Origin: a virus
Reading direction: 5' to 3' (one strand)
IMG/VR virus record: IMGVR_UViG_3300021091_000020
Location: 1 to 64,000 of that record
Length of the DNA: 64,000 bases
Shown here: one piece after another, positions 22,326 to 58,306 of the stretch
Position numbering within the stretch: the first letter of the stretch is position 1
How the letters are laid out: every line of letters begins with the position of its first letter
Notes under the pieces: model-generated
Database searches by the model: none
Told to the model about the DNA's origin: nothing
The model's input: the letters and a program-made list of their open reading frames with translations, nothing else
Translations under genes and position numbers: made by a program

Positions 22326-22326
22326 A

Positions 22327-32339: not shown

Positions 32340-32354
32340 TTAGTTAATTTTATT

Positions 32355-33320: not shown

Positions 33321-33330
33321 TTTAATAAAC

Positions 33331-35482: not shown

Positions 35483-35483
35483 A

Positions 35484-37108: not shown

Positions 37109-37472
37109 ACGACTTTTCCTCTACAAAATTTGAATTTGTTTTTTCGTTTATTTCTTTTTTTATAGTAAATCTTAAATCATTTGTAATATACACATTTCTT
37201 GCGTAAAAAACAAATTCTTTATCAAATTGTTTTAATTTTTCTTTACCGCGAATTAAATCTTCTGTTTTCCATAATTCCACATTAATGTCATACAGTTTGT
37301 TAAATAAATCAGCTATGCCATCTATTGATAACAAATTTTTTGATAAACGATTTAATTCTCTGTATTCCTTGAATATATTTACTAGCTTCGTTTCATCTGA
37401 TATGTTTTCCATTTTTATCTTCAATATAGAAAGTTTATCCAGAAGTTCACCATTTGATATTTCTACCATCAT
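37095..37472 (-). CDS. DUF6165-like protein (glycan-cluster associated)
   Basis: EIS.GELLDK.SIL.IK...LW..ED.IR...AR.VY.TND.R...K..IN....S...EEKSY. Confidence 0.75.
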   Translation of the reverse strand: MMVEISNGELLDKLSILKIKMENISDETKLVNIFKEYRELNRLSKNLLSIDGIADLFNKLYDINVELWKTEDLIRGKEKLKQFDKEFVFYARNVYITNDLRFTIKKEINEKTNSNFVEEKSYDKY

Positions 37473-38200: not shown

Positions 38201-38203
38201 TTC

Positions 38204-39798: not shown

Positions 39799-39799
39799 A

Positions 39800-40537: not shown

Positions 40538-41169
40538 ACTCTCTTATATGATGCCTTTTTTCCATCATTTTCAATTAACTGAAACTTATTGTCTTTTAAT
40601 AATTTGTTTTGTATTTTCGATAAATCATAATAAGTAACATCATCGAATACAATATACCCACCAATAGAAATCCTATCCATAAAGAAATCAACTTCTGCCA
40701 TAACTTCGGATAGTGAATGTGGACCGTCAAGATGAACCAATGCATAGTTTGTATACATTGTTTTATCAATATCGTATATTGGAACACCGTCTTTATATTT
40801 ATCAAAAAATTCAGTATCTTCCAAACATATCAAATCAAATAATATGTTTTTTTCCATTGCAAGTTTGTAGAGTTTTATCATTGTATCATATTTCATTTGA
40901 TTGGTATAATCAAATCTAACTCTCGCCCCTTCCATAGAACTGTATATCAAGTTACCATACGGATCTATCGCAATGAATGGCCTTTTTGTATTATCGGTGT
41001 CCATACATCCTATCATCATAACGCCCATACCACCACCTTGTCTTAAACCAACTTCACAAACTATTCCGTCAACACCAACAATATCTTTTGCCGCATTATA
41101 CAAAACATTGTGATCATTATGATCAAACTCTAATCCAAACTGTTTTGCTCTTAAAACTATTGAACTCAT
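40534..41169 (-). CDS. Class I SAM O-methyltransferase (Methyltransf_24/TylF-like)
   Basis: CEVGLRQGG, IDPY, VHLDGPH, GGYIVFDD. Confidence 0.8.
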   Translation of the reverse strand: MSSIVLRAKQFGLEFDHNDHNVLYNAAKDIVGVDGIVCEVGLRQGGGMGVMMIGCMDTDNTKRPFIAIDPYGNLIYSSMEGARVRFDYTNQMKYDTMIKLYKLAMEKNILFDLICLEDTEFFDKYKDGVPIYDIDKTMYTNYALVHLDGPHSLSEVMAEVDFFMDRISIGGYIVFDDVTYYDLSKIQNKLLKDNKFQLIENDGKKASYKRV

Positions 41170-41193
41170 ATAAACTCCAATTAAAATTTAAAA

Positions 41194-41955
41194 TCATAAC
41201 CTATCATACTGATGTACTATTGTATATTCACCAACTTTATTTATATCAAATTTAACATGACCACTTGCAATTACGTGAAGATGTACACCAAACTTATCAT
41301 TTAAATCCGTGAACATTACATCATCTTTATATGATGTTTGTATCAAATAATTAAATGATGTTTGATCAGCAACAAGTTTTTTACCAACAGACATAAGATA
41401 AATGTCTTTACATATATTCTTTACATAGTGACCACCACCACCGAAAACACCAACATTGTAAACTTCTTTGTCCATCAATGTGTCAGTTCCTATTCCACCT
41501 AAATTAACAAACAAGTGCCGTTTATTCCAATCTTCGTTTTCATATTTAACAACTTCACTTGAAGCAATTATCAAATTATGTGGTATCTGGTGAAAAGGAT
41601 CTCTATTGAAATATACGTCCCTAACATCAGTTATCAAAACTTTTTCATAATCATTATCATTTAAAAATTGCCATATATGAAAGAAACGAACATTGTGAAC
41701 AAGATTGTATGATGTTTCAATATCCATCTGTCCGGTGTCTGTTAAAAATTCATTTACAATATCACCGTAAATATTATGTTCCGGCAAAATAACTTCTACT
41801 TTATTTTCTTTTAGATACGATATAATATCTAGATTGGAATTGTTATACAGTAATAATACACGATCACATTCTATTGAGTTTGATGTTTCAACCCACTTTT
41901 GAATATCACTTACTTTATAGTTTCCACTTATTGCACCGATAATTAAATTATCCAT
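41194..41955 (-). CDS. Putative GT-A glycosyltransferase
   Basis: ITDVRDVYF..DPF, NVGVFGG, ADQ..FN, VHQYDR. Confidence 0.65.
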   Translation of the reverse strand: MDNLIIGAISGNYKVSDIQKWVETSNSIECDRVLLLYNNSNLDIISYLKENKVEVILPEHNIYGDIVNEFLTDTGQMDIETSYNLVHNVRFFHIWQFLNDNDYEKVLITDVRDVYFNRDPFHQIPHNLIIASSEVVKYENEDWNKRHLFVNLGGIGTDTLMDKEVYNVGVFGGGGHYVKNICKDIYLMSVGKKLVADQTSFNYLIQTSYKDDVMFTDLNDKFGVHLHVIASGHVKFDINKVGEYTIVHQYDRL

Positions 41956-41966
41956 TTAATATCACT

Positions 41967-42590
41967 TTACATTTTTGAATAAAAATCATTTTGTTTTTCT
42001 TGACGTTCTATTGTTTTCGGATGATAAAAACAAAAATCATCTTCTGCGGGTAATGATGTATGTGATGTATATCCAGACAATCTTTCATGTACTTTATTTT
42101 TCCAAACAATTTCTTTTTTGTTTCTGTATATGCGTGTTTGATAATCTGGCCAATTTATTCTTCCATGTTCATCATACACCCATCCCCACTTATCAATATG
42201 TTCCTGAGTTATATTATCAACTGTATTCCATCTTGGGACTAAAAACATTTCAACTTCTGAATTGTCTTTTAATATAGTGTATATGTTTCTTATCAAAAAG
42301 TCCGATGGTATTTCATCTGCATCTATATTGAATATCCATTCTTTTTTACAATGTTTCTTCAAATTGTTCTTAAATTTTGAGAAATTATTATTTAATGGAA
42401 ACTCAACAACTGTTAGGTTTTTTATTAAATGTTTATTATTTTCTATCAAATTTTTAACTTCATCCGTAACGGTATCTTTATCCATTTGAATAACAATTTC
42501 ATCTGCATCTGTTATTTTATTTTTCAAATAATAAATTAATCGCAATAATTCATCATGTTCATTGCAAACTGTTATAGTATATGAAATCAT
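41967..42590 (-). CDS. Glycosyltransferase family 2
   Basis: ISYTITVCNE, WIFNIDADE, WPDYQ.R, VHE. Confidence 0.85.
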   Translation of the reverse strand: MISYTITVCNEHDELLRLIYYLKNKITDADEIVIQMDKDTVTDEVKNLIENNKHLIKNLTVVEFPLNNNFSKFKNNLKKHCKKEWIFNIDADEIPSDFLIRNIYTILKDNSEVEMFLVPRWNTVDNITQEHIDKWGWVYDEHGRINWPDYQTRIYRNKKEIVWKNKVHERLSGYTSHTSLPAEDDFCFYHPKTIERQEKQNDFYSKM

Positions 42591-43909
42591 ATTTTTTCTC
42601 CATTGAGATCTATTTTTTTAAGAGTTGGTAATTTTTTAAGTTGAGGTAAATTTAAGTCTAATTTTTTAGAGAATATAGGCAAATTACTTTCAAGTATGCC
42701 AATAAATTTCTGATGCATTGCATCAAATGACCACAACTTTTCCAATTCTCTAATAGATCTCTTTGAACTTATCAAATACTTTTGATAATTTTTATGCACC
42801 TTATCCAATTCAATTGCTGCAGATTGATAGTTTACATTAAACCAAGACGATCCATCGTTGATAATTCCTTCCCACACTGCACTTTTATGCACAGGTTTAA
42901 CTTCACCTTTTAACAATACATGGAAATTTTTATTAACAAAATCAGTATGCCCACTCCAATCCGAAACAAGAACAGGTTTTCCAGAAGTGATAAATTCAGC
43001 AATTGGTCTACCATAACCTTCACCCTTTGTAAAAGAAACAAGTGCCTTTATTTTTTCGTGATTGTAAAGAGTATTCATTTCAGGATCTGTTAAATCACCA
43101 TGTAACAAATAAACATTTGGTAAATCCGTTTTATTAGTCATTGTTTTTATCAAATTTATTTTTTCTATTATTCTACTCTTATCCGTAACAGAAAATGTAC
43201 CCGAAGAAGATTTTAATAACAATGCAGGTTTGTTTGGTTTGTTTGCAAATGTTTCCAAGAAAGTGTATATCATTCCAGAAATATCTTTTCGGTCTTGACC
43301 GAAATCGCCTTTCAACCAATGACCAACGAAAAGATAAACAAATTTTTCATCAATTTCATTTATGGTTTTAGTTATACCTTCATCCATAGTGTTTGATTTA
43401 CCATATATTTCAAGTCTAACTCCTTCATGTAAAATTTCAATTGGAACATTAACTGAAAGATTACCAACCGCCTGATTAGTATGTTTATCTCTCTTTTCGT
43501 ATGATGTATTTAGGAATACATTTTTTGCATGTTTTGATGGAACAATTACTAAATCCATTCTATTACAACCTTCAATCCATTCGTGAGAACATATGTCAGT
43601 TTCTACACCTGCTGTTATTCCGATATTATATTTACCAACTTTTTGAAATTCATTTGGTATAGTACATTGCATCCAAATATCTGGTTGTGATGTGAGTGAT
43701 CCATTATGTATTAAATCCAATATAAGTTTGTGTTCTGGATTATTTTCATCCAAAGCATTCATTGGAGTTTCCCCCCAATTTATAGACATAACTTTTATAT
43801 CAAACTTATCCATTTTTATTAAAGATAAAAGTATATCTCTTGCATGTGCGCCATATCCACTAACAGTAGTAACCGGAGCACAAAAAGCTAATTGTGGTCT
43901 ATAATTCAT
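42587..43909 (-). CDS. GT4-like glycosyltransferase
   Basis: SGYG.HARD, FVGHW, RK, GEGYGRP..E....KPV....WSGH.DF. Confidence 0.85.
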   Translation of the reverse strand: MNYRPQLAFCAPVTTVSGYGAHARDILLSLIKMDKFDIKVMSINWGETPMNALDENNPEHKLILDLIHNGSLTSQPDIWMQCTIPNEFQKVGKYNIGITAGVETDICSHEWIEGCNRMDLVIVPSKHAKNVFLNTSYEKRDKHTNQAVGNLSVNVPIEILHEGVRLEIYGKSNTMDEGITKTINEIDEKFVYLFVGHWLKGDFGQDRKDISGMIYTFLETFANKPNKPALLLKSSSGTFSVTDKSRIIEKINLIKTMTNKTDLPNVYLLHGDLTDPEMNTLYNHEKIKALVSFTKGEGYGRPIAEFITSGKPVLVSDWSGHTDFVNKNFHVLLKGEVKPVHKSAVWEGIINDGSSWFNVNYQSAAIELDKVHKNYQKYLISSKRSIRELEKLWSFDAMHQKFIGILESNLPIFSKKLDLNLPQLKKLPTLKKIDLNGEKI

Positions 43910-43916
43910 ATCATCC

Positions 43917-45341
43917 TCATGTTAAGTATAATTCAAAACGATTTTTTGGTTTAAAGTTTTCCAACACGGCATTTATATCAACAATGATTCTATTAGCCAT
44001 ATTGTCTCTTGACATTCCAACTGCCTCATTCATCAGAAACTCTCTACCCTTTAAACCAGCAGAAGTTCTTTCTTGTTTTGGTGTCTTATACCATTCATAT
44101 AAAGCATTACCAATATCTCTGAAATCGGCACGGTCATCAAAAATATATGGTGTTGGGACTGAACCTTGTAATGATATATTTGATGGCCAAACTGGCTTAA
44201 CCCATTCACCATGTTTCAAATGTCCCCATTCATCTTTTCTATGTAAAGTGTGTATTTCAATATAGTCATCAGCAGTAAAATAATCATTTGTTTCTGGATT
44301 GATAAAACCACATTGGTCTTGCATACCACCTGTTACATTAACAACAATAGGAGTTCCGGCAGAAACAGCTTCTGCTGTTCCCAATCCAAATCCTTCATTT
44401 GATGCCATATTAACAACAACATCTGCATTGTTGTAAAGTATATTCAATTGATTTCCAGAAATTACTTTTTCATCAAACAATACGGAATATTCATTACATA
44501 ATTCTCCAACTAAAGCAACCAAATCAGTTCCATTTGGATCGATAGGTTGCGTGTGCATGAATAACACACAATTGTTTTTAGCATCACCGCCATTCTTATC
44601 AATTAACTGACACATATGTTTGTAAGCAAGAACAACATCACCGGGATGTTTACGATGAATATTTCTGTTATTCCACATTACTACAAATTTATCTGGATTG
44701 TTTCCTCGAATTTTTTTACTTTCATCTTCCATTTTTTGAAAATCAGGATGTCCTTCATTTATTGGAAAAAATATTCCAGTATCAATTCCGTGTGGAACAT
44801 AAGTTATTCTATAACTTGGCGCCGGTTCATTTATTCTAGAGAATATTCTTTTATTTATGCCATATGTTTGTTTTGAAATTGCCATCAATAAATCACAACT
44901 CGCATAAGCTTCTTTGTTCCACATTGGATCCGTTGCGGTATCTCCAATCAAACCAGCACCATCCCAAATGTTCAAATACATTAGTGGTATCTTTTGGCGT
45001 ATTTCATGTTCCATATTATACAACCATCCCCAAAATCTTGGATCTGTAAAGTGAAGAATTGCATCTGGTTTTTCAATTTCAATAAGTCTCCTCAATAAAA
45101 ATGAATCACCATACCCATCATTACAATATACTTTTACATACGCATCTTTTACTCCAGTCATGTTTTTAGTATCTTCACATAAATCCATAACCTTACCTTT
45201 ATCTGGATGATTTATAGCCGCACCAACTTGAACCCAATCAAATTCTCTTGCAGTTCCAATTACTATATCTCTTGATACAGTTGCAATGCCGGATGTTAGT
45301 CTCAAATCATCTGACAACAATAATATCTTTTTCTTTGCCAT
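43917..45341 (-). CDS. GT4-like glycosyltransferase
   Basis: SGIATV, VPHGID, NRN..RK, NEGFGL...EA...GTPIV...TGG. Confidence 0.85.
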   Translation of the reverse strand: MAKKKILLLSDDLRLTSGIATVSRDIVIGTAREFDWVQVGAAINHPDKGKVMDLCEDTKNMTGVKDAYVKVYCNDGYGDSFLLRRLIEIEKPDAILHFTDPRFWGWLYNMEHEIRQKIPLMYLNIWDGAGLIGDTATDPMWNKEAYASCDLLMAISKQTYGINKRIFSRINEPAPSYRITYVPHGIDTGIFFPINEGHPDFQKMEDESKKIRGNNPDKFVVMWNNRNIHRKHPGDVVLAYKHMCQLIDKNGGDAKNNCVLFMHTQPIDPNGTDLVALVGELCNEYSVLFDEKVISGNQLNILYNNADVVVNMASNEGFGLGTAEAVSAGTPIVVNVTGGMQDQCGFINPETNDYFTADDYIEIHTLHRKDEWGHLKHGEWVKPVWPSNISLQGSVPTPYIFDDRADFRDIGNALYEWYKTPKQERTSAGLKGREFLMNEAVGMSRDNMANRIIVDINAVLENFKPKNRFELYLT

Positions 45342-45350
45342 GTGAAACCT

Positions 45351-46736
45351 TTATATGTTAAAAAACTTCTGTGTTGTGTTTGTGGAAACGGTTTGCATAT
45401 TCAATAACATCTTACGATACGGTTTGAATTTGTAACCCATCTGTTCCAATGAAGAATTAAACCAATCTTCCGAATAATTATCTTTATTTCGTTTACCATT
45501 TGAAACTATCGTTTGCATATCACGAATAAAGTTATCAAGTTTATTCATGTCTCTGGTCAATCTTATCAATCTCAATCTTCTTCTGTTATATTCTTCTTCA
45601 TCTTGTTCTAATCTTTGTATCTCCAATATAAGACTTTTTAACGAATTTTCCAAATCATTTATATCATAAGACAAAACTAATTCAGCAAATTCTGTTCCTT
45701 TGAACAAGTCAATATATGTTTTATCATAAATTGGAATAGTCATCAAGTTCTTTTCTATCTGAGCATATTCAAATCTTGGTGTGATGAACATTCCGAAGAA
45801 AGGCACTTTGGTGTTTGTTGTTGATATACTAAATCTACAACCAGTTAAAAAGTTCATCATACTTTCCATCGTGTATGTTCCGGCGAGTATCATTGGTTTA
45901 TCGTTATCAAAAACTTTGAACACAGTTGGATCCAAATCAAAGTCTGGTAGAAATGTATCACTAAAAGTTTTACGAGAAACATTTGCGTGTTCTGCTAATA
46001 TCTTTACATGATTGAAATAATTTTCGGGCGAGTAAGTGTTTCCGATGTGAACCAATTTCTTACCTGAAAGGTCTTTCAATCCTAAATTGCCCATTGTTTC
46101 TACTATCGGTTTGAAGTTCCCATGACCTTTGAATTTAGCATAGTATGCACATTCTGAAATATATGGTAATTCTTTTTTATCTATCCATGATTTTTCAATC
46201 CACTTGTCATAGATACTCATGTCAATGTAACCACCGACTTGAAAAGTATATGCAGAAGTTCCTCTCATTCCAATATACTCTTTGAGTGCATCCACAAAAA
46301 ACGGTGTGTATGTTAAATAATAATCACTATATTTTATGAAAGCAGGAACACAAATAGTATTGAAGTGCATGCCCTCATACGGGTATATCTCATGGTCAAA
46401 GAATGCAGTTATAGTATTCAACTTACAATACATCTTTGCCAAGTCAATCAATTTTTGTTTGTGTTCTGGTTTTCTTTTTTCTATACCATCAACATCATAG
46501 ATAAATTTGTTGAGGTTCAAAACAACAATATCATAACCTTCCAATTTGTTTTTCAGTTCTGTCATTTCCATTTCGGAAATATCTACACAGTTCTGATATT
46601 CAGATTTGAAATTATTTGTTTCGCTAGGATTAAAGTAAAAGGTATCAACACTATCCAGTGATGATATATTTTTTGTAAAGGTATGTATGCCCCTATAAAC
46701 CGAAAGGTCAATAATTGCTAATTGAGCTATTTTCAC
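45351..46736 (-). CDS. T4 alpha-glucosyltransferase-like DNA glycosyltransferase
   Basis: Collinear resemblance to the T4 Agt sequence as recalled: YDIVVLN, FDHE, YTFQ..., SW.D..E, G...SP, Y....MM..L....F, EY...E....TIPIY, YD.ND.E, Y.RRR. C-terminus QKFFNI. Confidence 0.65.
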   Translation of the reverse strand: MKIAQLAIIDLSVYRGIHTFTKNISSLDSVDTFYFNPSETNNFKSEYQNCVDISEMEMTELKNKLEGYDIVVLNLNKFIYDVDGIEKRKPEHKQKLIDLAKMYCKLNTITAFFDHEIYPYEGMHFNTICVPAFIKYSDYYLTYTPFFVDALKEYIGMRGTSAYTFQVGGYIDMSIYDKWIEKSWIDKKELPYISECAYYAKFKGHGNFKPIVETMGNLGLKDLSGKKLVHIGNTYSPENYFNHVKILAEHANVSRKTFSDTFLPDFDLDPTVFKVFDNDKPMILAGTYTMESMMNFLTGCRFSISTTNTKVPFFGMFITPRFEYAQIEKNLMTIPIYDKTYIDLFKGTEFAELVLSYDINDLENSLKSLILEIQRLEQDEEEYNRRRLRLIRLTRDMNKLDNFIRDMQTIVSNGKRNKDNYSEDWFNSSLEQMGYKFKPYRKMLLNMQTVSTNTTQKFFNI

Positions 46737-46796
46737 GAAACACCTAATGATATTAGTTTACTATAAATATCTAGTATTTTTACAAAACATTAAATT

Positions 46797-47708
46797 TTAG
46801 AATGGCATTATGTTTCTTTTTTCTTTCGGACAAAGTTCTTCGTTAGTATTAAATTCACAATACTTACAGTTTGAATAATTGTTACCGCCTTCGGCAGGAT
46901 ATATTACATCCAATTTATATTCACCGTCTTCGGTAAATACAGTTGTAATAAATTCAGCAATTTCTTTCTTTATATTGTTTTGAGAAACTTTGCCGTTCGA
47001 TGGTTCAAATCTTTGAACTCTTTGTTTCATTGCTTCGTATTCTGCATCTTCAATAATCTTTCTACGCAGAATTAAATACTCAACATTTATTTCTTCTGGA
47101 CTAACACCATATTGTTTTGCATAATATGTTTTGTATAGAACAAGTTGTGATGTCTTTACCTTATCTGCCTTTGCATATTTGTTCCAACCGTTTGTGCTGG
47201 TTTTGAAATCATATATGTATATCTCACCAGTCTTTGTATTCTTAATAACCAAATCCAAAAATCCAACAAGTTTAACTGTTGGATGTGTTTCGAGTGGAAC
47301 AATGTTTATAGGCATTTCAATACCAACCAATTCATAATCTTTCTTTTGAAAGAAATCTGCTCTATGTGCCTTAAACCAATGAAGAATTTGAACACCGTCT
47401 GAATAGTATTCTTTAAGTTCTTTATCACTTGAAAAGTGAACATCTTTATTTTCGGTGAGTAATTTTTTATATTCATCACGAATACCACTCTGTAACATTT
47501 CATTGAGATCAAGTTTATTTGCCTCAACAATTGATTTCTCATAGATGGTCTTAACATACTCTTGCAACACTTCATGCATTACTGTTCCGAATAGAGCAGC
47601 AGTTGATGGTTGATAAGTTGCGAGTTTATCTATGTATGCGAGTTTCCATCTATGAGGACAACCTTTCCATATTTGATATTGTGAAAAAGATACCTTTTTG
47701 TTAGGCAT
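46797..47708 (-). CDS. PD-(D/E)xK RecB/Cas4-like exonuclease
   Basis: SFSQ....CP, FGTVMHE, GFLDL...IYDFKTS, QL..Y, C.YC.F...C. Confidence 0.85.
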   Translation of the reverse strand: MPNKKVSFSQYQIWKGCPHRWKLAYIDKLATYQPSTAALFGTVMHEVLQEYVKTIYEKSIVEANKLDLNEMLQSGIRDEYKKLLTENKDVHFSSDKELKEYYSDGVQILHWFKAHRADFFQKKDYELVGIEMPINIVPLETHPTVKLVGFLDLVIKNTKTGEIYIYDFKTSTNGWNKYAKADKVKTSQLVLYKTYYAKQYGVSPEEINVEYLILRRKIIEDAEYEAMKQRVQRFEPSNGKVSQNNIKKEIAEFITTVFTEDGEYKLDVIYPAEGGNNYSNCKYCEFNTNEELCPKEKRNIMPF

Positions 47709-48079
47709 TATTTACCCCACTTACCTGACTGAACAAGTTGTGCAATGATACCATATACCGAAATATCTTTGAATGTATCATCCAAACATTCACCGACTGC
47801 ATCTTTTGAACCAAACATAATCATTTGTTTGTAACGATTTACTTTATCATTTATACGAAAGAAAAGACCCTGTAAAGAAAGTTTACGGTCTTCTTCTCTT
47901 TCCAATGATGATCCCATAGAGATATTATCAGGACCATAATTAGACTGTTTTGCACAAAATAATTCATATTGTGCCTGTTGTATTCTCTTAAACTCGGCAG
48001 TCATCACCGGAAATTTCTTTTCCATTTCAGTAACAACATCGGGCTGTTTCCTACCCAAATCAATTTCTTTTATTGACAT
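47708..48079 (-). CDS. DUF1599-like (nucleotide-modification-associated) protein
   Basis: F..KQ.NYG..N...GL..R..DK..R...E...DTF.D...YGII pattern. Confidence 0.75.
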   Translation of the reverse strand: MSIKEIDLGRKQPDVVTEMEKKFPVMTAEFKRIQQAQYELFCAKQSNYGPDNISMGSSLEREEDRKLSLQGLFFRINDKVNRYKQMIMFGSKDAVGECLDDTFKDISVYGIIAQLVQSGKWGK

Positions 48080-48090
48080 TTTATTATTCC

Positions 48091-48543
48091 TCATTTTATA
48101 TTCTTTAATTGTTTTTCAAATTTAGTAATATCTGCTTCCGGCGTTCCATATTGTTTCAATATATCAATAAGTTCATCTTGGTTATTCTCTTTCAGAAATC
48201 TGATGTATGCATATACTTCATTTTTTCCCAACTCAAAGTGGTTACAAAGTGTAGATAGAATTTCTGGTTCTATTTCCATTTTGTGTTTAGACTTTATGTA
48301 TTTCAGGAAAATGGATTTCTTTGGGAGAATATCTAGCAAAAGTTTATAGTAATCCTTTGAAGATAGTATTCCATTTGAATATGTTTGAAACTCATTTATG
48401 ACTTCAACAAATTCCGGCTCCATTGAAAAGAAACGAGCAATCATATAATTGCTCCATGATTTTGTATCTTCTTCTGAAAGTTCTTCCCATTTTGTTTTAC
48501 GGAAAGTAACTCCTTTAATATGATCAAATAAACTTTTTGCCAT
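48091..48543 (-). CDS. Clamp-loader small subunit (T4 gp62-like)
   Basis: SLFDHI...YMI.RFFSM....N..Q...LPKK..FLKY.K; next to the clamp-loader ATPase. Confidence 0.7.
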   Translation of the reverse strand: MAKSLFDHIKGVTFRKTKWEELSEEDTKSWSNYMIARFFSMEPEFVEVINEFQTYSNGILSSKDYYKLLLDILPKKSIFLKYIKSKHKMEIEPEILSTLCNHFELGKNEVYAYIRFLKENNQDELIDILKQYGTPEADITKFEKQLKNIK

Positions 48544-48551
48544 GATAATCC

Positions 48552-48821
48552 TTAATCGTTTAGTTGTTGTCTTTTTGTTGGCATAAATTCGTCATTGATA
48601 TGACCACATTGCAAACAAGCATAAGTTGGAATTGGAACAATACCTTCCTGTCCGTTTGGCGAAATCAATGCCGAAATCTTTTTGAAGAAAGTTACTTCGT
48701 GAAAAAATTTGTGTCCACATTTTGCACATGCAATATCTGATGCTTGGTTTAGATCAAAACTAATTCTTTGTTGATCTTGTGGTGGTTGTCCACCACCATT
48801 GATGTCATAAATACCCATCAT
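48552..48821 (-). CDS. Zinc-ribbon protein
   Basis: CAKCG...KKISAL.SP.G...P.Y.C..CGH. Confidence 0.7.
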   Translation of the reverse strand: MMGIYDINGGGQPPQDQQRISFDLNQASDIACAKCGHKFFHEVTFFKKISALISPNGQEGIVPIPTYACLQCGHINDEFMPTKRQQLND

Positions 48822-49759
48822 TTTCTCCTTTGGTCAATTTCCATAATAATTTGAATAAACATAGCCATGGCATTTATTTCATGGTCTACAACAAAACTAT
48901 CTTTGTATTGTGCTTCAGCAATAATCAAAATAATAGTTGATACGAAACCATTAGCGAATGTATCAACAGTATCGTAAAGATGTCTGAACATTTGATTGAA
49001 GTCACGAACATGATTGTCAGCAAGTAACTGACGAATACCATCAAACTTTTCTTTTTTGTTTTTATTTGATTTGAGAATATCAACAATTGAAGAAAGATAA
49101 TTGTGTTCTACCAAAGTTGTTTCATCTAATTTCAAAACACCACCAATAACACATCGTTGAGTTGTGTTAATTACACGGCGAATATCTGGATATGATTGAT
49201 TGATAATCGTTGCAAGATTATCCTTTTCATACTTTATATTCTCACCATCAAGAATTTTTACAAGATGTTGTGCAACTTCTTTTTTTGACGGTGGAACTAT
49301 GTTAAAGATTTGACAACGAGATTGAATTGGATCAATAATCTTATCTACATAGTTACAAGTCAAAATAAAACGAGTTGTCTTACTGAATGTTTCAATTACA
49401 TTACGAAGTGCCGCCTGAGCATTTGGCGTCATGTAATCACATTCATCCAATATAATTAGTTTCAATCCACCAAAACCAATCGAAGAAGCAAACTGTTTGA
49501 TTTTATCACGAACAGTATCTACTGAATTTTCATCTGAAGCATTGATGTAAATATAATTATCTTTTGCAATAGTATTTGCAACAATCTTAGCAAGGGTAGT
49601 TTTACCACTACCGGCATCGCCATACAAAAGAAGATGTGGAACATCACTTGTATCAATATACTGTTGGAATGTTGCCTTTACAGTTTCATTGCCAACATAA
49701 GTGTCAAGTGTCTGTGGACGATACTTTTCATTCCAAATTGTGTGTGAAGCGTTAAACAT
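48818..49759 (-). CDS. Clamp-loader AAA+ subunit (RFC/gp44-like)
   Basis: W.EKYRPQ, GDAGSGKTT, NASD, LDECD, SRC. Confidence 0.93.
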   Translation of the reverse strand: MFNASHTIWNEKYRPQTLDTYVGNETVKATFQQYIDTSDVPHLLLYGDAGSGKTTLAKIVANTIAKDNYIYINASDENSVDTVRDKIKQFASSIGFGGLKLIILDECDYMTPNAQAALRNVIETFSKTTRFILTCNYVDKIIDPIQSRCQIFNIVPPSKKEVAQHLVKILDGENIKYEKDNLATIINQSYPDIRRVINTTQRCVIGGVLKLDETTLVEHNYLSSIVDILKSNKNKKEKFDGIRQLLADNHVRDFNQMFRHLYDTVDTFANGFVSTIILIIAEAQYKDSFVVDHEINAMAMFIQIIMEIDQRRK

Positions 49760-49818
49760 AACATACCTTATTGGTTAATAAATTCATCTACTAATATATG
49801 TAATTTTCGCCTAATATC

Positions 49819-50889
49819 CTAGCGATTTTTTTGAAATACGAAGATTGGCTCTCTTTTATAGCCAGCCCCCATAACAGCGGACAGTATCAGTTGTAGAGTA
49901 TCGGTGTGATCGAAACCAACTAGGTTGGCATACTTTATAGTCATTTCTTCCAAATCTTTATACTTTGGTGTGTTGGCTATGTTTATTAGCATATAGCCAC
50001 CCATTTTCAATCCGTGATAACAATTACGGAAAGTTGATTGAAGAAAACCAGAACCCCAAGTTTCACGGGTTGGAAATTTATTATACGATTGAGTTTCTTC
50101 ATCTGCATATTTTTCAGTATCGAAATATGGTGGCGATGTAAAACATAAATCTAAACTATCTTTTTCGGGAAGATAATCTTCCGAACCCATCATATTCAAT
50201 TGAATATCTTTACCGAGATAATCAAAATCATCGCGTAATTTACACAGACCTTCAAATGTTTTCGTTGATGGTTCTGTTCCAATATAAGTTTTAATATGAG
50301 GGGAAGCAAGAGCACCAACCAATCTTCCACCCCAACCACAAGACATATCCCACATCACACCGTCACCACCATACTTTTTATAGATAACACCAGCAGCAGT
50401 TGGTCTAAAATTGGAAACACCTTGAACACCAGAATATATTTTAAGTGATTGACGAAGACGGTTCTCTTGAAAGGAACTACCCCAATGTTTTGACAACCAC
50501 TTCAAACATTTGCGTATTGTCATTTTGAATGTTTGGTCATTCAAAAAATTATCGATTGGAGACATCTTTGAGTTTCCGCATTTAACTTCCATCGCGTGCG
50601 GAAAGTATGACCACGCTAACCGAAGTCCGTTCATGGTTTGAATTATATCACCGTCTTTGAAAATACTATCATAATCAAACTGTTGTAGTTTTCTCATGTG
50701 TTCATGTTTTTCGTGTTCAGTAATTTTCATATATGGATAACCGTGTTTGCGGTAATACTGAAAGATACAATCTATTGTATCATCCAATTCTCTTTTACCT
50801 GCAAAAAATTCACCGGTCTCTTTCCACAAACGAACTTCTAGCGGATCAACATCAAAGAATTTACTTAAACTATCGCCGTTAGGTTTCAT
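49819..50889 (-). CDS. DNA amino-methyltransferase (GWGGR/SPPY type)
   Basis: WDMSCGWGGRLVGA, FTSPPYF..EKY, C-terminal EPIFVF. Start corrected to MKPNGDSLSKFF. Confidence 0.85.
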   Translation of the reverse strand: MKPNGDSLSKFFDVDPLEVRLWKETGEFFAGKRELDDTIDCIFQYYRKHGYPYMKITEHEKHEHMRKLQQFDYDSIFKDGDIIQTMNGLRLAWSYFPHAMEVKCGNSKMSPIDNFLNDQTFKMTIRKCLKWLSKHWGSSFQENRLRQSLKIYSGVQGVSNFRPTAAGVIYKKYGGDGVMWDMSCGWGGRLVGALASPHIKTYIGTEPSTKTFEGLCKLRDDFDYLGKDIQLNMMGSEDYLPEKDSLDLCFTSPPYFDTEKYADEETQSYNKFPTRETWGSGFLQSTFRNCYHGLKMGGYMLINIANTPKYKDLEEMTIKYANLVGFDHTDTLQLILSAVMGAGYKREPIFVFQKNR

Positions 50890-50890
50890 G

Positions 50891-52516
50891 TTAGGGTTTA
50901 TAGAAAACAAAAATTGGTTCGTGCTTAAACCATTCACCATTGTATAAAACTTTATTTGCTAATCGTTCTGGATCGGAATTACCAATCATCTTTGTCATAA
51001 GCATACACATTTTACCTTTGTATTCCATTCCCAAAGATTTTAATATATCAATAGAATCTTGTTCAAGATTTATTGTTTTGGTTGCAGATACTTTGATATT
51101 TGCAATGTTCCAACAAATATATCTATCATTTTTCAAATAAGCAACAGCAGTTTCCAATGTTGGTTTCAAAAAGTTATCACGCCAATCTGCGTATTCTCCG
51201 TGTGCCTTATATGATTGTGTATCATCATCAGAATACATTTCACGATTGAAATACGGCGGTGATGTGAAAACAAAATCCAATTTACCTTTATACTTTTGAA
51301 AATCAGGATTGAATTGTATTGTTTCAGAACCATCTTGGAAAACTTCGTATGTATGGTCTTCTCTTACATCAAAGAACTTCGATGAAAGTGAACTACCTTT
51401 CTCACCAATAGACTTCAAATAAAAGTCTGCAAGATATTCATAACGAGTAATTCCCAAATCAGGAATTGAATTGTCTGTGTTTGGATCCGTTCCAACATAA
51501 TGTATCGGCCTACTCACCGACATTGCTCCTAAAATTCTTCCACCCCAACCGGCACTTGGATCATATACCGTAACCATTTCACTTGCTGGAATATGTTTTG
51601 TAAAATGTTCATACAAAAACTTTGCAGTCATTGGTGGAAAGTTTACAGCAGGTTGTGAGAAAGAAATACGGAATATCTGAAATGCTTGTGGAAATAATTT
51701 TGCACTCTTTTCATATACTCTTACCAAGAAAACATTTACTCTTGGTTCTTCACCGTCTTTTTTTATCATAAAATTATCAGACAGTTCTTCTATATCACCT
51801 AAATAAAATATCATACTCACATCAAGTATTCCATCCTTAACAAACTCACGGATTTGGTCTGCCTTTATAGTCAAATACTTTGTATATTTTTTATTGTAGG
51901 TTTCAAGTGTGCAAGATATTTTTGATATACGCAAACCTTGTCCATCAAATCTACCATCACCATTCTTAAATGCAAGAAAGAAATCGCGTAGAGTTTCACC
52001 TTCTCGGAAATAAGGGTTCTTGATTTGATTTGATGAAATAGATTTACTATAAAGATACATCGAGTCATTGTAAAGAGTTCTACGCATAACATGATGAAAA
52101 GTATCTTTCATTTCATCGGTAAAGAAATCATAGATTGATCTAGATGTCTCACCACTTGTTCCACTCGCAATCTTTGTTTTCAGCATCGTTGGAAAGAATT
52201 GATTAGCAGCAGAACCATTTTTAGAGAAATTGGCAATGACGCCGATTATATCTTTGTCATTGCCTTTATCTGGATTATGAAAAACTTTTGATGAATTGAA
52301 TTGACGGAGCTTTGAAAACGATTGAACAATCTCCTCTTCGGATCTGCCAACGAGTGGTGGTTTACCGTTTTCATCCCAATCTTTCAAAAACCTCATTCGT
52401 AAATCTTCTACCCATTCGGAAAACTTTTTATCATCATAAGTTACCAATTCACCGTATGTAATATTACACGGCCAAGATAGAACATTACCCTTTTCATAAA
52501 AATATTTTTTCATCAA
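50891..52516 (-). CDS. DNA amino-methyltransferase (GWGGR/SPPY type), large
   Basis: YDPSAGWGGRILGA, FTSPPYFNRE.Y, C-terminal EPIFVF. Confidence 0.85.
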   Translation of the reverse strand: MMKKYFYEKGNVLSWPCNITYGELVTYDDKKFSEWVEDLRMRFLKDWDENGKPPLVGRSEEEIVQSFSKLRQFNSSKVFHNPDKGNDKDIIGVIANFSKNGSAANQFFPTMLKTKIASGTSGETSRSIYDFFTDEMKDTFHHVMRRTLYNDSMYLYSKSISSNQIKNPYFREGETLRDFFLAFKNGDGRFDGQGLRISKISCTLETYNKKYTKYLTIKADQIREFVKDGILDVSMIFYLGDIEELSDNFMIKKDGEEPRVNVFLVRVYEKSAKLFPQAFQIFRISFSQPAVNFPPMTAKFLYEHFTKHIPASEMVTVYDPSAGWGGRILGAMSVSRPIHYVGTDPNTDNSIPDLGITRYEYLADFYLKSIGEKGSSLSSKFFDVREDHTYEVFQDGSETIQFNPDFQKYKGKLDFVFTSPPYFNREMYSDDDTQSYKAHGEYADWRDNFLKPTLETAVAYLKNDRYICWNIANIKVSATKTINLEQDSIDILKSLGMEYKGKMCMLMTKMIGNSDPERLANKVLYNGEWFKHEPIFVFYKP

Positions 52517-53232
52517 TTGTTATCCAATTTTACTAAATAATATTTTGCATCATAGTCATCAATATCAAATTCAACTTTTGCCAAACCTTCTGATGAAACT
52601 TTGAGTGTTCCACCATTCAAATCTTTATTAGCAGCAAGAATACCATTGAAGTATTTAGCAGAGAAACTAATTGGTTCAATATCATCACTAGCATTACAAT
52701 CAATATCAATTGAGATACGATTTGAATTTGTATTTGAATAACCGAGAACAATTTGATACTTATTCAGTTTATCATTTTTTAATACCGTAAACTTTTCAAT
52801 ATCCGATAGAGCAGACTTTGCCTTGATGAATTTATCAATAAATTCTTTTGTAATTGTAATATCCAACTCAAACTTTGGCAATTCTTTCAAGTCTGGTGCA
52901 GGTGGAATAACTGCAAGGTCAGCCAACATATAATTTACAGTAGTTGATTTATCATCAATAGTCAATGAGAATGCCTTATCACCAGCACCATTCACTTGAA
53001 AGTTTACTGTGTTACCAAGAACACCAAGAAGACTTACAAGCAAGTCTGTGTTATACACACCAAACTTCCAATCATCACCTTGAAAACTTTTCAACTTAAC
53101 TTCGCCAACTACACATTTATCATCAGAAATAAAACGAGTGGAAAGCCCACCATTTGCATTCCAAGCAACAGACTGTATCAGCTTACCCAAATGATACTTA
53201 CTGATAAAGTTCAACAACTTTGATTTTTCCAT
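52513..53232 (-). CDS. Sliding clamp (gp45/PCNA-like)
   Basis: 239-aa two-lobed alpha/beta pattern (FGVYNT..L..LL; L.VSSEGL..VEF.....Y.LV); lies between the polymerase and clamp loader. Confidence 0.75.
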   Translation of the reverse strand: MEKSKLLNFISKYHLGKLIQSVAWNANGGLSTRFISDDKCVVGEVKLKSFQGDDWKFGVYNTDLLVSLLGVLGNTVNFQVNGAGDKAFSLTIDDKSTTVNYMLADLAVIPPAPDLKELPKFELDITITKEFIDKFIKAKSALSDIEKFTVLKNDKLNKYQIVLGYSNTNSNRISIDIDCNASDDIEPISFSAKYFNGILAANKDLNGGTLKVSSEGLAKVEFDIDDYDAKYYLVKLDNN

Positions 53233-53267
53233 AACAACAATCCTTAATGAATAGTAAATAATTTATG

Positions 53268-53298
53268 CTAATATATGAAATTTTTGCGTAATTTCAAA
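53268..53298 (-). promoter_or_regulatory. Bacteroidota-type promoter (variant TATATTAG)
   Basis: On the - strand: TTTG, N19, TATATTAG, upstream of the clamp gene. Confidence 0.6.
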
Positions 53299-55810
53299 AC
53301 GAAAAAAACTTTTGTGCAACTTTTTTATTCTCGGTTGGGAAATCCCACTGCATTGCCTCATAGAAATTTTTTAACTTGCCATCCAATTCCGAAACAAATA
53401 ATTCATTGGCATCAAAATAATCCTTGACAAATTGTATAATTTCTTCTGGATCCGAATCACCACGAAATGCCAACTCTTCCAATCCGTATTTGTTTGATTT
53501 CAAATAAGCAATCTTAACCTTATCACCATTTTTAATTGGCGGATATTTAGGAGGACAACCAAATATAGTCAATAACTTATTATAGTTTATAGCCGCCTTG
53601 ATATGTGATGGCGTTCCCTTTGCATACTTACCGAGAACATCATCTTTAACGGGAGTAGCATACTTTTTAATATCTTTTATTGAAGAAGTTTTTGCAACCT
53701 CGTTTATCAAAACATCATTCAAATTCTTTTTGAAAGTCAATATGTATTCATCAATTTCATTTTTATCTTTACCTTTGAGAATATCAATCATCACATCCTT
53801 CATACATTTTTGAAATGATTTGGGAAAAGATGAACGAACAATATCCAAACCTTTAACTTCCAACTTATCCATTGGAACACCGTTATCAGAAATAATCCAA
53901 AGTGCATATCTCTTTTTCTTTTGCCAGAATCCTGTTCTACCAATCATTTCTTGTTTGATTTCCAAACGATGTTTGTCAGTATTGAATATCTTTTTGGCAA
54001 AAACATCATAAAATTGATTGACATAATCTTGAACTTCCGTTGCAATCTCATAAATCTTCGGCGTCATTGTTTCAATATCGTTTGTATCAATATCCGGAAA
54101 TCTATTATTCACCAAAGGTAAACACGAAACAAACACAGAGTCAGTATCAACATACTGCACATAATCAATATCATCGGTTTTCAATTCTTTATTGTATTTC
54201 ATATTGATAGCAGCTTCTGTTTTCTTGATAACCGTTTGACCAGAAAGTGTAACTGCTTCTGCATTGTCAATATCATAAAAACGAAATGCAGGTAATCCCA
54301 AGATACCATACATACTATTCAAAAGAATTTTCTGAACAAGTTGTCTTTTCTTGTAAAACTCATACTTTTCTGTATTTCCAGCTTTACCCCACTTCTTCAT
54401 TTCATTTTTATATTCCACCCGTTTATCAAACCAATCTGAAAGAATTGCTGGAATAAGTCCTGTTTTATCTGAACTATACATGACACCATTTGATGAAACT
54501 GTATACTTGTATTTATCAAGAAATGCTTTTAATTTTTCTTTTGATATACGGTCATTGCCAACAATATATTCATCTTTTTTTCCACGAAGAAAATCCTCAG
54601 CATTCCAATCTTCAATCTTAGCAATCTTTGTTTCTGGAGAAATGTTTAGTGTCATAATGATTGACGGATATAGTGATGTCAAATCCAAGTCATACATCCA
54701 ATCATATCTACCCGGAACAGGATCCTTAACAAATGCACCGATAAATCCTTTCTCACCGCTCTCTTTCAATTCTTGCATCTTTTCTTGTCTATCAGCAGGT
54801 TTGTTCGGAGCAACAACACCGCCAATATGTTTAAGATAAGTAAGCATAGCACCTTCCAAATACTTTGATGAATATACAAAGTCTTCATAAGGAACATGGC
54901 CAACATGAGCGATACCACGAACTAAATCAATATACTGTAACTTCTTGTCCAATTCGATAACCAACTCAACGTCAGTAATGTTGTATTCTATAAATGTATC
55001 AATATCATTTTCCATCAAGTCATCAAGGTTGCCTTCATACTCAACCTTACCACGACCAAGTTCGGTCATACAAACTGCGTTTAGAGCATAAGATGGTAAT
55101 TCTTTATATGAGAATTTTTTATACACGGTCATATAATCTAACACGGATGTTCCACCGATTGTATAACGATTACGATATGGTGAATAAAACATTTCACCAA
55201 TTACTGAAAGACTATTTGCTTGTTTTTTACCAAGAACTCTTTTGATACGATTATACAAATATGGAATATCGAATGCATCACAATTCCATCCAGTCATAAT
55301 ATGGGGTTGGATTTCTTGAATAGCATCTATGAATTTAAGCAACAAAGTTTTTTCATCTGGACAAGGAATTACTTTTTTGTTTTCCGTAGTTTTATTTTCC
55401 AATTTTCTTTTCTTGTCCAATACAAGAATTGTATATTGGTTTGTTGCGGAATCATGGTAAGCAATAGATGTAACTTCGTTATTACCTTGTGTTGGATCAG
55501 GAATACCGGTAATCATTTCAACCTCAATATCAAATGTCATTGTAACAATTCCTTTCGAGGGCATATCGGAATCACTATACATATCAACAAGAATACGAGT
55601 TGTCTCTGCAATATCCGATTCAAATAGGTCAGGATCATTCTTTACAAAGTTTGTAACCTTTGAAAGTTTATCACCGTATAGAGAAATATATTTACCGTTA
55701 GGATCTTTCTTGTAAGCATAAGGCGTGTATTCAAAATGCATCAAACCTTTGGCATCATCCCACACCCATGCTTCTTTTGTATTTGTTTTAACAAAAATGT
55801 TTTGATACAT
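53294..55810 (-). CDS. Family B DNA polymerase
   Basis: Exonuclease motifs FDIE, GWN...FD, YN..D. Polymerase motifs DLTSLYPS, KILLNSMYG, YVDTDS, KKRY. Start corrected to MYQNIF. Confidence 0.97.
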   Translation of the reverse strand: MYQNIFVKTNTKEAWVWDDAKGLMHFEYTPYAYKKDPNGKYISLYGDKLSKVTNFVKNDPDLFESDIAETTRILVDMYSDSDMPSKGIVTMTFDIEVEMITGIPDPTQGNNEVTSIAYHDSATNQYTILVLDKKRKLENKTTENKKVIPCPDEKTLLLKFIDAIQEIQPHIMTGWNCDAFDIPYLYNRIKRVLGKKQANSLSVIGEMFYSPYRNRYTIGGTSVLDYMTVYKKFSYKELPSYALNAVCMTELGRGKVEYEGNLDDLMENDIDTFIEYNITDVELVIELDKKLQYIDLVRGIAHVGHVPYEDFVYSSKYLEGAMLTYLKHIGGVVAPNKPADRQEKMQELKESGEKGFIGAFVKDPVPGRYDWMYDLDLTSLYPSIIMTLNISPETKIAKIEDWNAEDFLRGKKDEYIVGNDRISKEKLKAFLDKYKYTVSSNGVMYSSDKTGLIPAILSDWFDKRVEYKNEMKKWGKAGNTEKYEFYKKRQLVQKILLNSMYGILGLPAFRFYDIDNAEAVTLSGQTVIKKTEAAINMKYNKELKTDDIDYVQYVDTDSVFVSCLPLVNNRFPDIDTNDIETMTPKIYEIATEVQDYVNQFYDVFAKKIFNTDKHRLEIKQEMIGRTGFWQKKKRYALWIISDNGVPMDKLEVKGLDIVRSSFPKSFQKCMKDVMIDILKGKDKNEIDEYILTFKKNLNDVLINEVAKTSSIKDIKKYATPVKDDVLGKYAKGTPSHIKAAINYNKLLTIFGCPPKYPPIKNGDKVKIAYLKSNKYGLEELAFRGDSDPEEIIQFVKDYFDANELFVSELDGKLKNFYEAMQWDFPTENKKVAQKFFSF

Positions 55811-55811
55811 A

Positions 55812-57038
55812 TTATACCTTTTTGAACATCCATATTGGTTCACAAAACTTTTTATCTTTATTCTCTTGAGCAAACTGAACACTATCATCAAGAAAGTGTC
55901 CGTCTCTTGTAGCTGTTCCTGCACCGGCAGAGTTAGGTCTTTTGGACATTTCCATTCCGATACATCCCAAGTATTCCATTCCACTCTCTACAAGAAAATC
56001 ATTCATCGGGTTTGTTATCTCTAACCATTGTCTACCCGTAGACCATGCGGAATTTGTGTAAACATCTGCAATGTTTATTGCCATGACACCACCAACTCGC
56101 AATGATGGTATAATATTTCCTAGTGTCTTTTGTAGAAAATCTTTATTCCACATATCAATTCCTTTATATCGAACCCAACTCTGTGTATCTGATTGTGAAT
56201 ACTTCTCAACATTGAAATACGGTGGTGATGTAAACACCAAATCAAAATGTTCTGGATATTGTGAGAAATCAAAATCTTCTGCTGGTGATTGATAGAAATT
56301 TGTTTTCTTCTTACCTTCAAAGAAACCTAAATTCTTTTCATAGAACTGGACTTGTTCATCATATATCGGATGGTTTTCTACTCTTGGATCCAATCCAACA
56401 TAATGTTCGGTGCAAGAGGCAGCGTAAAATCCCGCAAGTCTGTCACCCCATCCCATAGAAAAGTCTAATACATTTTTTGCACCTAACATTTCGTACATAC
56501 ACTTTGCAACATTAGGTTTGAACTGTGAACAAATGTATTTACGCAATCCTAACATTGTTCTCAATTCTGATTTACCGATTGTTTCCATTTTAAGAGAATA
56601 CATAGAACCCATAAGTGACTTCATAAACTTATGGTTTTGCCATGTTCTAGCAGGACCTGGTGATACGGATGCATCAACTTCCCAACGGTTCTTTTGTTGG
56701 AAATAGTTTGATGCATCGTTACCAGTATTAAGACGACTGAAATATAACTGTTTTCCACCATAAGTCAAAGCATATTTTGGTTCGGATGCTTTTCTTGGAA
56801 ACCACTCACCTTCTTTTAGAATTTCATTCCAACGAATACCTTTCAATTTTAGAAACTCGCTTTGAGCACTTTCGATTGTAATATCCGCATACGGTAGTGG
56901 ATATGTCATTGCTATTTCAGCCAGACGGTCTTTGACATATTCTTTATCAAAGTTTTCTTTTATGTATGTTATTTGTTCAGCAGTTATGGATAGATACGGA
57001 TTCATTCCGTAAAATTGTTGGAAATAATCTTCTTCCAC
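55812..57038 (-). CDS. DNA amino-methyltransferase (GWGDR/SPPY type)
   Basis: LDFSMGWGDRLAG, FTSPPYFN.EKY, C-terminal EPIWMF. GTG start. Confidence 0.85.
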   Translation of the reverse strand: MEEDYFQQFYGMNPYLSITAEQITYIKENFDKEYVKDRLAEIAMTYPLPYADITIESAQSEFLKLKGIRWNEILKEGEWFPRKASEPKYALTYGGKQLYFSRLNTGNDASNYFQQKNRWEVDASVSPGPARTWQNHKFMKSLMGSMYSLKMETIGKSELRTMLGLRKYICSQFKPNVAKCMYEMLGAKNVLDFSMGWGDRLAGFYAASCTEHYVGLDPRVENHPIYDEQVQFYEKNLGFFEGKKKTNFYQSPAEDFDFSQYPEHFDLVFTSPPYFNVEKYSQSDTQSWVRYKGIDMWNKDFLQKTLGNIIPSLRVGGVMAINIADVYTNSAWSTGRQWLEITNPMNDFLVESGMEYLGCIGMEMSKRPNSAGAGTATRDGHFLDDSVQFAQENKDKKFCEPIWMFKKV

Positions 57039-57658: not shown

Positions 57659-58306
57659 TTAAATGTCAATATCTTTCCAATCACCATTTGCAATAGTTTT
57701 TGTTGCCCATTTACCCATTATGTTTGCGTGTTTGTAGTAGTTATCTTCTATTATCGTTTCAAGTAATGTGGTTTCAAACATGAATGGTCTACCACTAACC
57801 TTTGTCATAAACTCACCACCTTGCCCCATCTTTCTATCTTTGAACTTAACTTCTTTACCAAAACCAGGATACGAACTTTCACAATCACTTGTTCCAATTA
57901 GTGTAGAACCATCGCCGTCTTTTGGAATATAGAGAATAGAATCCTGTTGATACTTACCGCCAAGATTTATCAAGTCTTCTCGCAATTTTCCTTTGTCTTT
58001 CAAATCAACAACAAAGTAAACATTTTCTTTAACTTCTTTTGCATCAGGTGTTCCGTAGTTTTCAATATAAGCACCTTGAACTGCAGTAACACCGTAACCC
58101 ATCATTTGAAGATTGGCATATAATTGTCTGTTTCTTTTTTGATTGTCACCTTTTGAATATGGTTTATCTTCAGCTGTAGCACAACCTTCTTTGGAACGAA
58201 ATGCAGTTATTGTGCCACAATCATGTTCTTCCATATGTTTTGACAATCGAGCAAGCCCACTCTCGTTTAATTGTTTATCTGGTAATAAATGTTTTAACTT
58301 TGCCAT
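57659..58306 (-). CDS. Conserved phage protein with LKHLL..QLNE leader
   Basis: NES.L.R...ITAFR...N..RN..L...G.Y.E...E..YFV...LG.KY.QDS.L; ATATTTAT motif upstream. Confidence 0.7.
   Translation of the reverse strand: MAKLKHLLPDKQLNESGLARLSKHMEEHDCGTITAFRSKEGCATAEDKPYSKGDNQKRNRQLYANLQMMGYGVTAVQGAYIENYGTPDAKEVKENVYFVVDLKDKGKLREDLINLGGKYQQDSILYIPKDGDGSTLIGTSDCESSYPGFGKEVKFKDRKMGQGGEFMTKVSGRPFMFETTLLETIIEDNYYKHANIMGKWATKTIANGDWKDIDI

Follow-up and report, generated by a model that had tools for sequence, protein, structure and literature searches.

The tethering of enzymes to a replicative sliding clamp by peptides that imitate the polymerase tail is already known from bacteriophage T4, and the DNMT1-PCNA pair offers a related precedent. 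A phage sugar transferase is also said to contact its clamp, an interaction between the T4 alpha-glucosyltransferase (alpha-GT) and the clamp gp45 having reportedly been found by Sommer et al. in 2004. In T4 DNA ligase a flexible loop of the catalytic domain copies the tail of the polymerase gp43 (EPEGLDFLFD in the ligase, EKASLDFLFG in gp43) and binds the clamp pocket with a Kd of about 10.7 uM (PMC6212786), and the T4 proteins gp55 and gp33 end in hydrophobic epitopes that are near-identical to the gp43 tail, follow variable linkers and are interchangeable with that of gp43 (PMC2988020). DNMT1 carries a clamp motif in its N-terminal region and acts on newly replicated DNA (PMC9690074); the table of bacterial clamp partners in the same 2022 review lists no methyltransferase (PMC9690074), and our full-text literature search found no paper on a DNA methyltransferase, from phage or bacteria, that bears a clamp-binding motif. 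Here we examine a 64,000-nucleotide stretch of viral DNA (IMG/VR record IMGVR_UViG_3300021091_000020, positions 1 to 64,000; hereafter the window) in which the family B DNA polymerase (PolB) ends in a peptide with the core KFF, and similar peptides occur in two neighbouring putative DNA methyltransferases, MT356 and MT541, and in a putative sugar transferase, GT461. The best reading, to which we give a probability of roughly 55%, is that DNA modifiers are tethered to the phage clamp through these look-alikes of the polymerase tail, their binding being predicted. What appears to be new, judged from sequence, is the nature of the clients, of which one clamp would serve several (DNA methyltransferases and a putative sugar transferase), and an apparent matching of tail to clamp across phages.

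The locus resembles each of these systems in part. The SLSSKFFDV loop of MT541 has the same layout as the T4 ligase loop, standing beside PolB-type tails that read QKFFSF or LSKFFNF; it differs in that the client would be a DNA-modifying methyltransferase, the core is KFF and not LDFLF, the interaction is putative and the loop had its FF before the extension upstream of it arose. The GT461 tail is like the epitopes of gp55 and gp33 in joining a conserved core to a variable linker. Those two proteins couple late transcription to replication, whereas the clients here would be DNA modifiers, and the record yielded no homologue of gp55 or gp33. The T4 alpha-GT-gp45 pair represents the same concept, a sugar transferase on a phage clamp marking DNA during replication; the tail of the T4 enzyme lacks a gp43-like peptide, whereas GT461 has a PolB-like tail and its kinship to AGT is only a lead. 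DNMT1-PCNA serves eukaryotic maintenance methylation, and the likeness there lies in a methyltransferase that bears a clamp motif. An earlier reading of the same DNA (the original prediction) stated that no such system had been described, which was too strong, as the contested T4 alpha-GT-gp45 interaction, the T4 ligase loop and DNMT1-PCNA are all close precedents.

The phage record spans 123.5 kb at 33% GC (70% complete by CheckV), and the window is its first 64 kb. Its nearest named relative is Microcystis phage Mel-JY01 (PolB identity 62%); a further relative, G001, has 45% PolB identity. All four KFF peptides of the original prediction are present in the sequence as described, in genes on the minus strand. 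PolB (53294-55810) ends in KVAQKFFSF, with the motif at 53297-53314, and GT461 (45351-46736), a 461-residue protein of a small family that is possibly GT-B/AGT-like, ends in TTQKFFNI (motif 45354-45371). MT356 (49819-50889) carries the N-terminal peptide MKPNGDSLSKFFDV, in which SLSKFFDV forms residues 7-14 (50848-50871), and MT541 (50891-52516) carries the loop GEKGSSLSSKFFDVR, in which SLSSKFFDV forms residues 376-384 (51365-51391), between motif II and strand beta-3. Together with a third paralogue, MT408 (55812-57038, minus strand), directly upstream of PolB, the methyltransferases are interleaved with the genes of a T4-type replication module in the order MT408-PolB-clamp-MT541-MT356-gp44-zinc ribbon-gp62, as had been predicted, and this interleaving is kept in relatives at ~80% PolB identity and in one at 45%. 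That relative is G001, where the order is beta-class methyltransferase, PolB, clamp, two MT408-like genes, gp44, zinc ribbon, gp62, ClpP and an MT356-like gene, so the association of methyltransferases with the replication module is old. The ClpP-family protease of G001 (locus L120, 7451-8080) lies between gp62 and the MT356-like gene, and the MT408-like paralogues follow the clamp in tandem (9834-12256).

The tail of PolB is very probably a clamp-binding peptide. The polymerase is of the T4/RB69 gp43 type (Pfam DNA_pol_B, 5e-40; RB69 gp43 in the PDB, 1.7e-77); its open reading frame (ORF) is listed as 53294-55984, and the likeliest start, in line with Mel-JY01 and G001, is the ATG at 55810 (MYQNIF..). 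FF was retained in 50/50 true PolB C-termini of IMG/VR relatives, four more rows being N-terminal halves of split genes and standing outside the 50. The tail reads NLSKFFNFK in Mel-JY01 and DTIERFF in G001. Between PolB and the clamp loader lies a 239-residue protein (52513-53232, minus strand) that matches the processivity factor phrog_223 (2.9e-9) and falls into sliding-clamp clusters with PF09116 in the language-model ESM Atlas (scores 0.95-0.96). Its trimer model folds confidently, with a predicted local distance difference test (pLDDT) of 91-92; the sequence itself found no Pfam match and no PDB sequence match, and hhalign of its family against T4 gp45 was weak (E 0.038). With a loader identified by phrog_225 and by Pfam AAA and Gp44_lid, the phage thus has a clamp of the gp45 type and a loader of the gp44/62 type. 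Some relatives carry PolB as two ORFs of ~596 and ~298 residues about 1 kb apart (L076, 5468-9210; L029), which could mean an inserted intron, a homing endonuclease or an intein-like element.

The best new evidence for clamp tethering comes from a methyltransferase outside the window. In Mel-JY01, scanned over ~94% of its genome, KFF occurs in the last 12 residues of only two of 232 ORFs, namely PolB and a 434-residue beta-class methyltransferase (PF01555, 126 bits) that ends in NIAKFFNMDKKEN. This enzyme belongs to a family unrelated to the SPPY methyltransferases of the window and adjoins primase-like and AAA genes. Its Pfam domain covers residues 26-403, and alignment to its best 80 homologues in IMG/VR (41-52% identity) stops by residue 431, and by residue 423 in 78 of them. 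FF is absent from the last 15 residues of all 79 homologues whose C-termini are complete; 23 (9 of 60 distinct tails) instead end in Q..LF, mostly QLKLF and also QQKLF, against 3/420 other frames of the same loci. Such tails fit the bacterial beta-clamp consensus QL[S/D]LF (PMC3716654) and therefore point specifically to clamps. That consensus addresses the host DnaN clamp, whereas the phage of the window has a gp45-type clamp and KFF. In five QLKLF-type phages that are 91-100% complete, no clamp was found, whether gp45-like and of this family or DnaN-type, with a profile that recovers the clamps of G001 and Mel-JY01. Within one methyltransferase family, the tail thus appears to follow the available clamp. 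The loci with these ends include L132, L142, L148, L156, L184, L194 and L200, and their linkers are proline- and acid-rich or otherwise dissimilar. G001 offers a further candidate, a beta-class methyltransferase that ends in RFI next to PolB (ERFF); [KR]F followed by a hydrophobic residue occurs in the last eight residues of 4/168 ORFs there, about chance by estimate, and this case is therefore suggestive only.

The peptides of the window are conserved where their surroundings drift. The original prediction had looked to orthologues for conservation, and the peptides of PolB, GT461 and MT356 were indeed kept as neighbouring residues changed. Of the close relatives of GT461 with a complete tail, 45/45 end in [QKH]KFFNI after a variable linker, and the sole orthologue at 61% identity ends in ITSKFFSES behind a diverged linker; other homologues, of ~400 residues, lack the whole C-terminal extension (~45 residues). 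The start of MT356 at 50889 was called correctly, as shown by a stop codon directly upstream in four relatives, and LSKF[FV]D[VI]D is retained in every orthologue with a recovered N-terminus, including that of G001 (59% identity), where ~24 diverged residues (3/24 identical) separate LSKFVDID from the conserved domain. This arrangement, a conserved island ahead of a drifting stretch, is that of a short linear motif. For MT541, an AlphaFold 2 model had a mean pLDDT of 73, and loop residues 371-385 were coil with pLDDT <50; the five-residue lengthening that yields SLS-S-KFF is confined to the clade of this phage.

Placement and coding of the peptides add to this pattern. KFF within 15 residues of a protein end was counted in 5/160 proteins against 1.0 +/- 1.0 in 400 shuffles, a value of 5 being reached in 0.25% of them, and for the last six residues the count is two proteins, PolB and GT461, where the shuffles average 0.15 (2 is reached in 0.75% of them). 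SLSKFFDV of MT356 and SLSSKFFDV of MT541 stand at non-homologous positions of paralogues, and both closely resemble the Mel-JY01 PolB tail NLSKFFNF. Recent DNA duplication was considered as the origin of the two methyltransferase peptides and rejected: their codons differ (Ser AGT against TCA/TCG, unlinked codon families; Leu TTA against CTT), so they were not recently copied as DNA, and their identity was held, or reached, at the protein level. None of the tails is a canonical PCNA-interacting protein box. Qxx[LIM]xx[FY][FY] does not describe PolB (VAQKFFSF) or GT461 (TTQKFFNI), whose Q stands just two positions ahead of FF and whose residue at -3 from FF is not aliphatic, and the h-x-x-F-F core occurs only in MT356 (LSKFF), the Mel-JY01 PolB (LSKFF) and the Mel-JY01 methyltransferase (IAKFF). 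The remaining terminal cases in the record are an HNH endonuclease whose tail reads ..EQEKFFDWDEIPGEE and a small membrane ORF (25962-26129, NKFF). The HNH enzyme (13805-14500, plus strand; phrog_14736), whose C-terminal tail is acidic, may be a further clamp client or a chance occurrence. A PHROG scan of ten proteins, including other KFF- or FF-bearing ones, gave names for only two, both tail proteins.

The three SPPY enzymes have motif IV as TSPPYF and motif I as GWGGR, and hhalign relates MT541 to MT356 at 5e-29 and to MT408 at 4e-24. Their PF01555 scores straddle the 26.7-bit cut-off: 27.3 bits for MT356, 25.0 (hmmscan) and 28.3 (second scan) for MT541, and 21.5 and 22.2 for MT408. The MT541 model has the generic fold of a class I S-adenosylmethionine (SAM) methyltransferase, and its best matches in a PDB fold search include the tRNA m2G methyltransferase Trm11; a PDB sequence search with MT541 returned nothing useful. 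From family membership and position inside the replication module we infer that DNA would be the substrate of all three. For GT461 the sole argument for DNA as the target is the polymerase-like tail.

We propose the following mechanism, in which a gp43-like PolB tail with the core KFF would dock on the gp45-like trimeric clamp, by analogy with T4 gp43. At least some of the neighbouring DNA modifiers may have acquired look-alikes of this tail on flexible parts, namely the N-terminus of MT356, the end of the C-terminal extension of GT461 and, less certainly, the lengthened loop of MT541. Sharing the pocket of the polymerase tail, the tethered enzymes would occupy free pockets of clamps that remain on newly made DNA, and nascent DNA could then be methylated, and perhaps glycosylated, directly behind the fork before host nucleases cut it; the benefit to the phage would be protection from restriction. 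The parts of this proposal differ in strength, by rough judgement and with no computed values. After PolB, clamp docking is somewhat favoured for the GT461 tail and evenly balanced for the MT356 N-terminus, and it is doubtful for the MT541 loop, the weakest case, whose FF is ancestral.

The clamp trimer was docked with residues 1-40 of MT356, the clamp being swapped for an unrelated protein as control. The docking score was 0.58 (runs of 0.45, 0.58 and 0.65), the best control scored 0.00, and the runs shared at least 68% of contacts with a partner pLDDT of at least 46. Our mark was passed by 58/80 solved complexes and by 2/110 mismatched pairs. Structure prediction of a clamp-peptide pair, which the original prediction had suggested, thus lends weak support in this one pairing and would shift the odds for clamp binding only a little.

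A number of observations tell against clamp tethering of the modifiers, and several of them favour an alternative that we regard as unlikely, in which only the PolB tail binds the clamp, the KFF of the methyltransferases is an element of their own fold or substrate binding, and the GT461 tail is a product of chance. On that account the FF loop of MT541 and MT408 is ancestral, and in MT356 the element has moved to the N-terminus and packs back in cis. Scores of 0.60 or less that pass the docking mark were obtained for just 7/80 solved complexes and for both passing mismatches, and the weak docking of MT356 also counts in favour of this alternative. The original prediction placed the MT541 motif in an insertion absent from its paralogues, and this was partly right: GSSLSSK, and only this, is inserted relative to MT356 and MT408, whereas the FF pair has aligned counterparts, GFFEG in MT408 and NPFFG or NPFWG in distant orthologues of MT541. 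An FF or FW at this position thus already occurs in short loops that lack the SLS extension, both in MT408 and in the MT541 orthologues at 45-48% identity, and F381 of the loop is invariant in 24/24 homologues; the FF of MT541 may therefore be structural or substrate-binding. FF is invariant in MT541, and some orthologues have R or N in place of K. Other invariant loops of MT541 likewise have low pLDDT in the AlphaFold 2 model. The N-termini of all three paralogues are of the [KD][YF]F type, which suggests aromatic elements specific to the family; MT408 has no KFF, its equivalent loop being NLGFFEG and its N-terminus (M)EEDYFQQF, and its orthologues start MYL[DK]YFDKF. In G001 the MT356 motif stays LSKFV where the PolB tail became ERFF, and there is no clear co-variation between the two. 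Two more PF01555 methyltransferases of the window, at 858-1769 and 2390-3346 (plus strand), lack KFF.

The statistics of the motif have a similar bearing. Raw KFF is not enriched over the record as a whole (11 against 8.2 expected; 159 ORFs, 39,285 residues), nor is it in Mel-JY01 (10 against 10.3), so that the proteome count raised by the original prediction bears it out at the termini (5 against 1.0) and not overall. In shuffles the chance that a protein other than PolB has KFF in its last six residues is ~14%. SKFFDV as a shared 6-mer is not significant alone, since unrelated proteins often share 6-mers (56 cases, against 31 +/- 5 in 200 shuffles). GT461 has no family assignment and stands at the edge of a ~17-kb glycan-synthesis island, so that a target other than DNA is possible; a search of the 70%-complete record turned up neither ThyA nor a hydroxymethylase. 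The T4 alpha-GT-gp45 interaction, the sole published claim of a clamp-bound glycosyltransferase, was not reproduced with glucosyltransferases His-tagged at the C-terminus (NAR 2026, PMC13216743).

An own-fold origin of the methyltransferase peptides nonetheless leaves four observations unexplained: SLS appears upstream of FF only in the clade whose relatives have LSKFF as the PolB tail; the KFF of GT461 is kept at 61% identity despite a diverged linker; a KFF tail lies beyond the Pfam domain of the unrelated beta-class methyltransferase of Mel-JY01; and homologues of that enzyme end in QLKLF. A further account, which we consider improbable, accepts the peptides as docking motifs and assigns them to another partner, such as the clamp loader, a hub of single-stranded DNA-binding protein or helicase, or a host protein, by which polymerase and modifiers would be recruited to a common replication compartment. 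Conservation and terminal placement fit such a partner equally well, and two different gp45 sites have been described for T4 gp43 (PMC2988020). Set against it are the gp43 C-terminal tail, an established clamp ligand in T4-type phages (PMC2988020, PMC6212786), the QLKLF ends of homologous methyltransferases, which point to clamps, and, weakly, the docking score of 0.58 on the clamp against 0.00 on an unrelated protein. Docking of the modifiers on the clamp, the core of the original prediction, thus gains from conservation, from the differing codons, from the flexible MT541 loop and from the KFF and QLKLF tails of the Mel-JY01 family, and loses from the ancestral FF of MT541 and the weak docking; tethering through polymerase-tail look-alikes remains the best explanation on this balance.

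Phage DNA needs to be modified before host nucleases act, and it is poorly understood how the modifiers keep up with very fast replication. If the writers dock by means of polymerase-tail copies, their activity would be physically coupled to the fork, as with DNMT1 in eukaryotes, and the presence of methyltransferase genes inside replication modules would have a testable reason. A sequence rule for replication-coupled modifiers would also follow, namely a tail matched to the resident clamp. We tentatively extend this to the possibility that phage DNA modifiers commonly bear a clamp-docking peptide of this kind, QLKLF-type for the host beta clamp and KFF-type for a gp45-like clamp of their own. 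Were that so, nascent-DNA self-marking coupled to replication would be a widespread and undescribed anti-restriction strategy, and the window, with several writers per clamp, would be its richest case. The disputed T4 alpha-GT-gp45 question would be worth revisiting in phages where the resemblance of tails is explicit.

The label of GT461 as an Agt-like glycosyltransferase has fared unevenly, being favoured by a language-model first match and a weak hhalign alignment and finding nothing in Pfam, PHROG or PDB, so that it is only a lead. The top ESM Atlas cluster was PF11440 AGT (score 0.96, 175 shared features), and hhalign of the family against T4 alpha-GT was collinear (266-387 against 267-386) and weak (E 0.055, probability 1%). 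Pfam gave no match at E <= 10, also for three relatives, and PDB gave none, also with the family profile. The family is small, with 34 word-index matches and eight full-library representatives, and an AlphaFold 2 model from 11 close sequences was unusable (pLDDT 42). The island that GT461 adjoins (29022-46736, minus strand) encodes a UDP-glucose dehydrogenase, an NAD epimerase/dehydratase, three GT2, a GT7-like and two GT4 glycosyltransferases, and FkbM- and TylF-type methyltransferases. It could act on virion proteins, DNA or the host surface.

The rest of the module and its downstream neighbours also lie on the minus strand. The large clamp-loader subunit, a gp44-like AAA+ protein (48818-49759), matches Pfam AAA, DNA_pol3_delta2 and Gp44_lid, and the small gp62-like subunit (48091-48543) matches the clamp loader phrog_225 (3.6e-12). 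Between them sits a zinc-ribbon protein (48552-48821; weak Zn_ribbon matches), whose KFF lies in the context CGHKFFHEVTFFKK. KFF is kept there in Mel-JY01, and G001 reads YNF, on which ground we rejected this KFF as a docking motif; CGHKFFHEVTFFKK probably belongs to the fold and is no docking peptide. The zinc-ribbon gene stands between the clamp-loader genes in Mel-JY01 and G001 also, and T4 has no counterpart at that position. A PD-(D/E)XK nuclease follows (46797-47708), with a 128-residue protein encoded between it and the gp62-like gene.

The two methyltransferases at 858-1769 and 2390-3346, on the strand opposite to that of the replication module, score 61 and 43 bits with PF01555 and have TCPPYY as motif IV; the one at 858-1769 would begin MKFWEE if its first ATG is the start. 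With them, the window has five amino-methyltransferases in total. A few hundred bases upstream of the three SAM-dependent methyltransferases of the module lies a SAM lyase family protein (57659-58306, minus strand; PF23780, 3e-13). A SAM-degrading enzyme near SAM users is puzzling, and the replication module of Mel-JY01 has a SAM synthase instead. Elsewhere in the window, the phage encodes a GroEL-type chaperonin (14861-16507, plus strand; Cpn60_TCP1, 1e-75; phrog_5725, 2e-169), and two small adjacent ORFs (22005-22334 and 22327-22764, minus strand) contain the identical 10-residue stretch DMKDLVNEGR and may be paralogues or the product of a local duplication.

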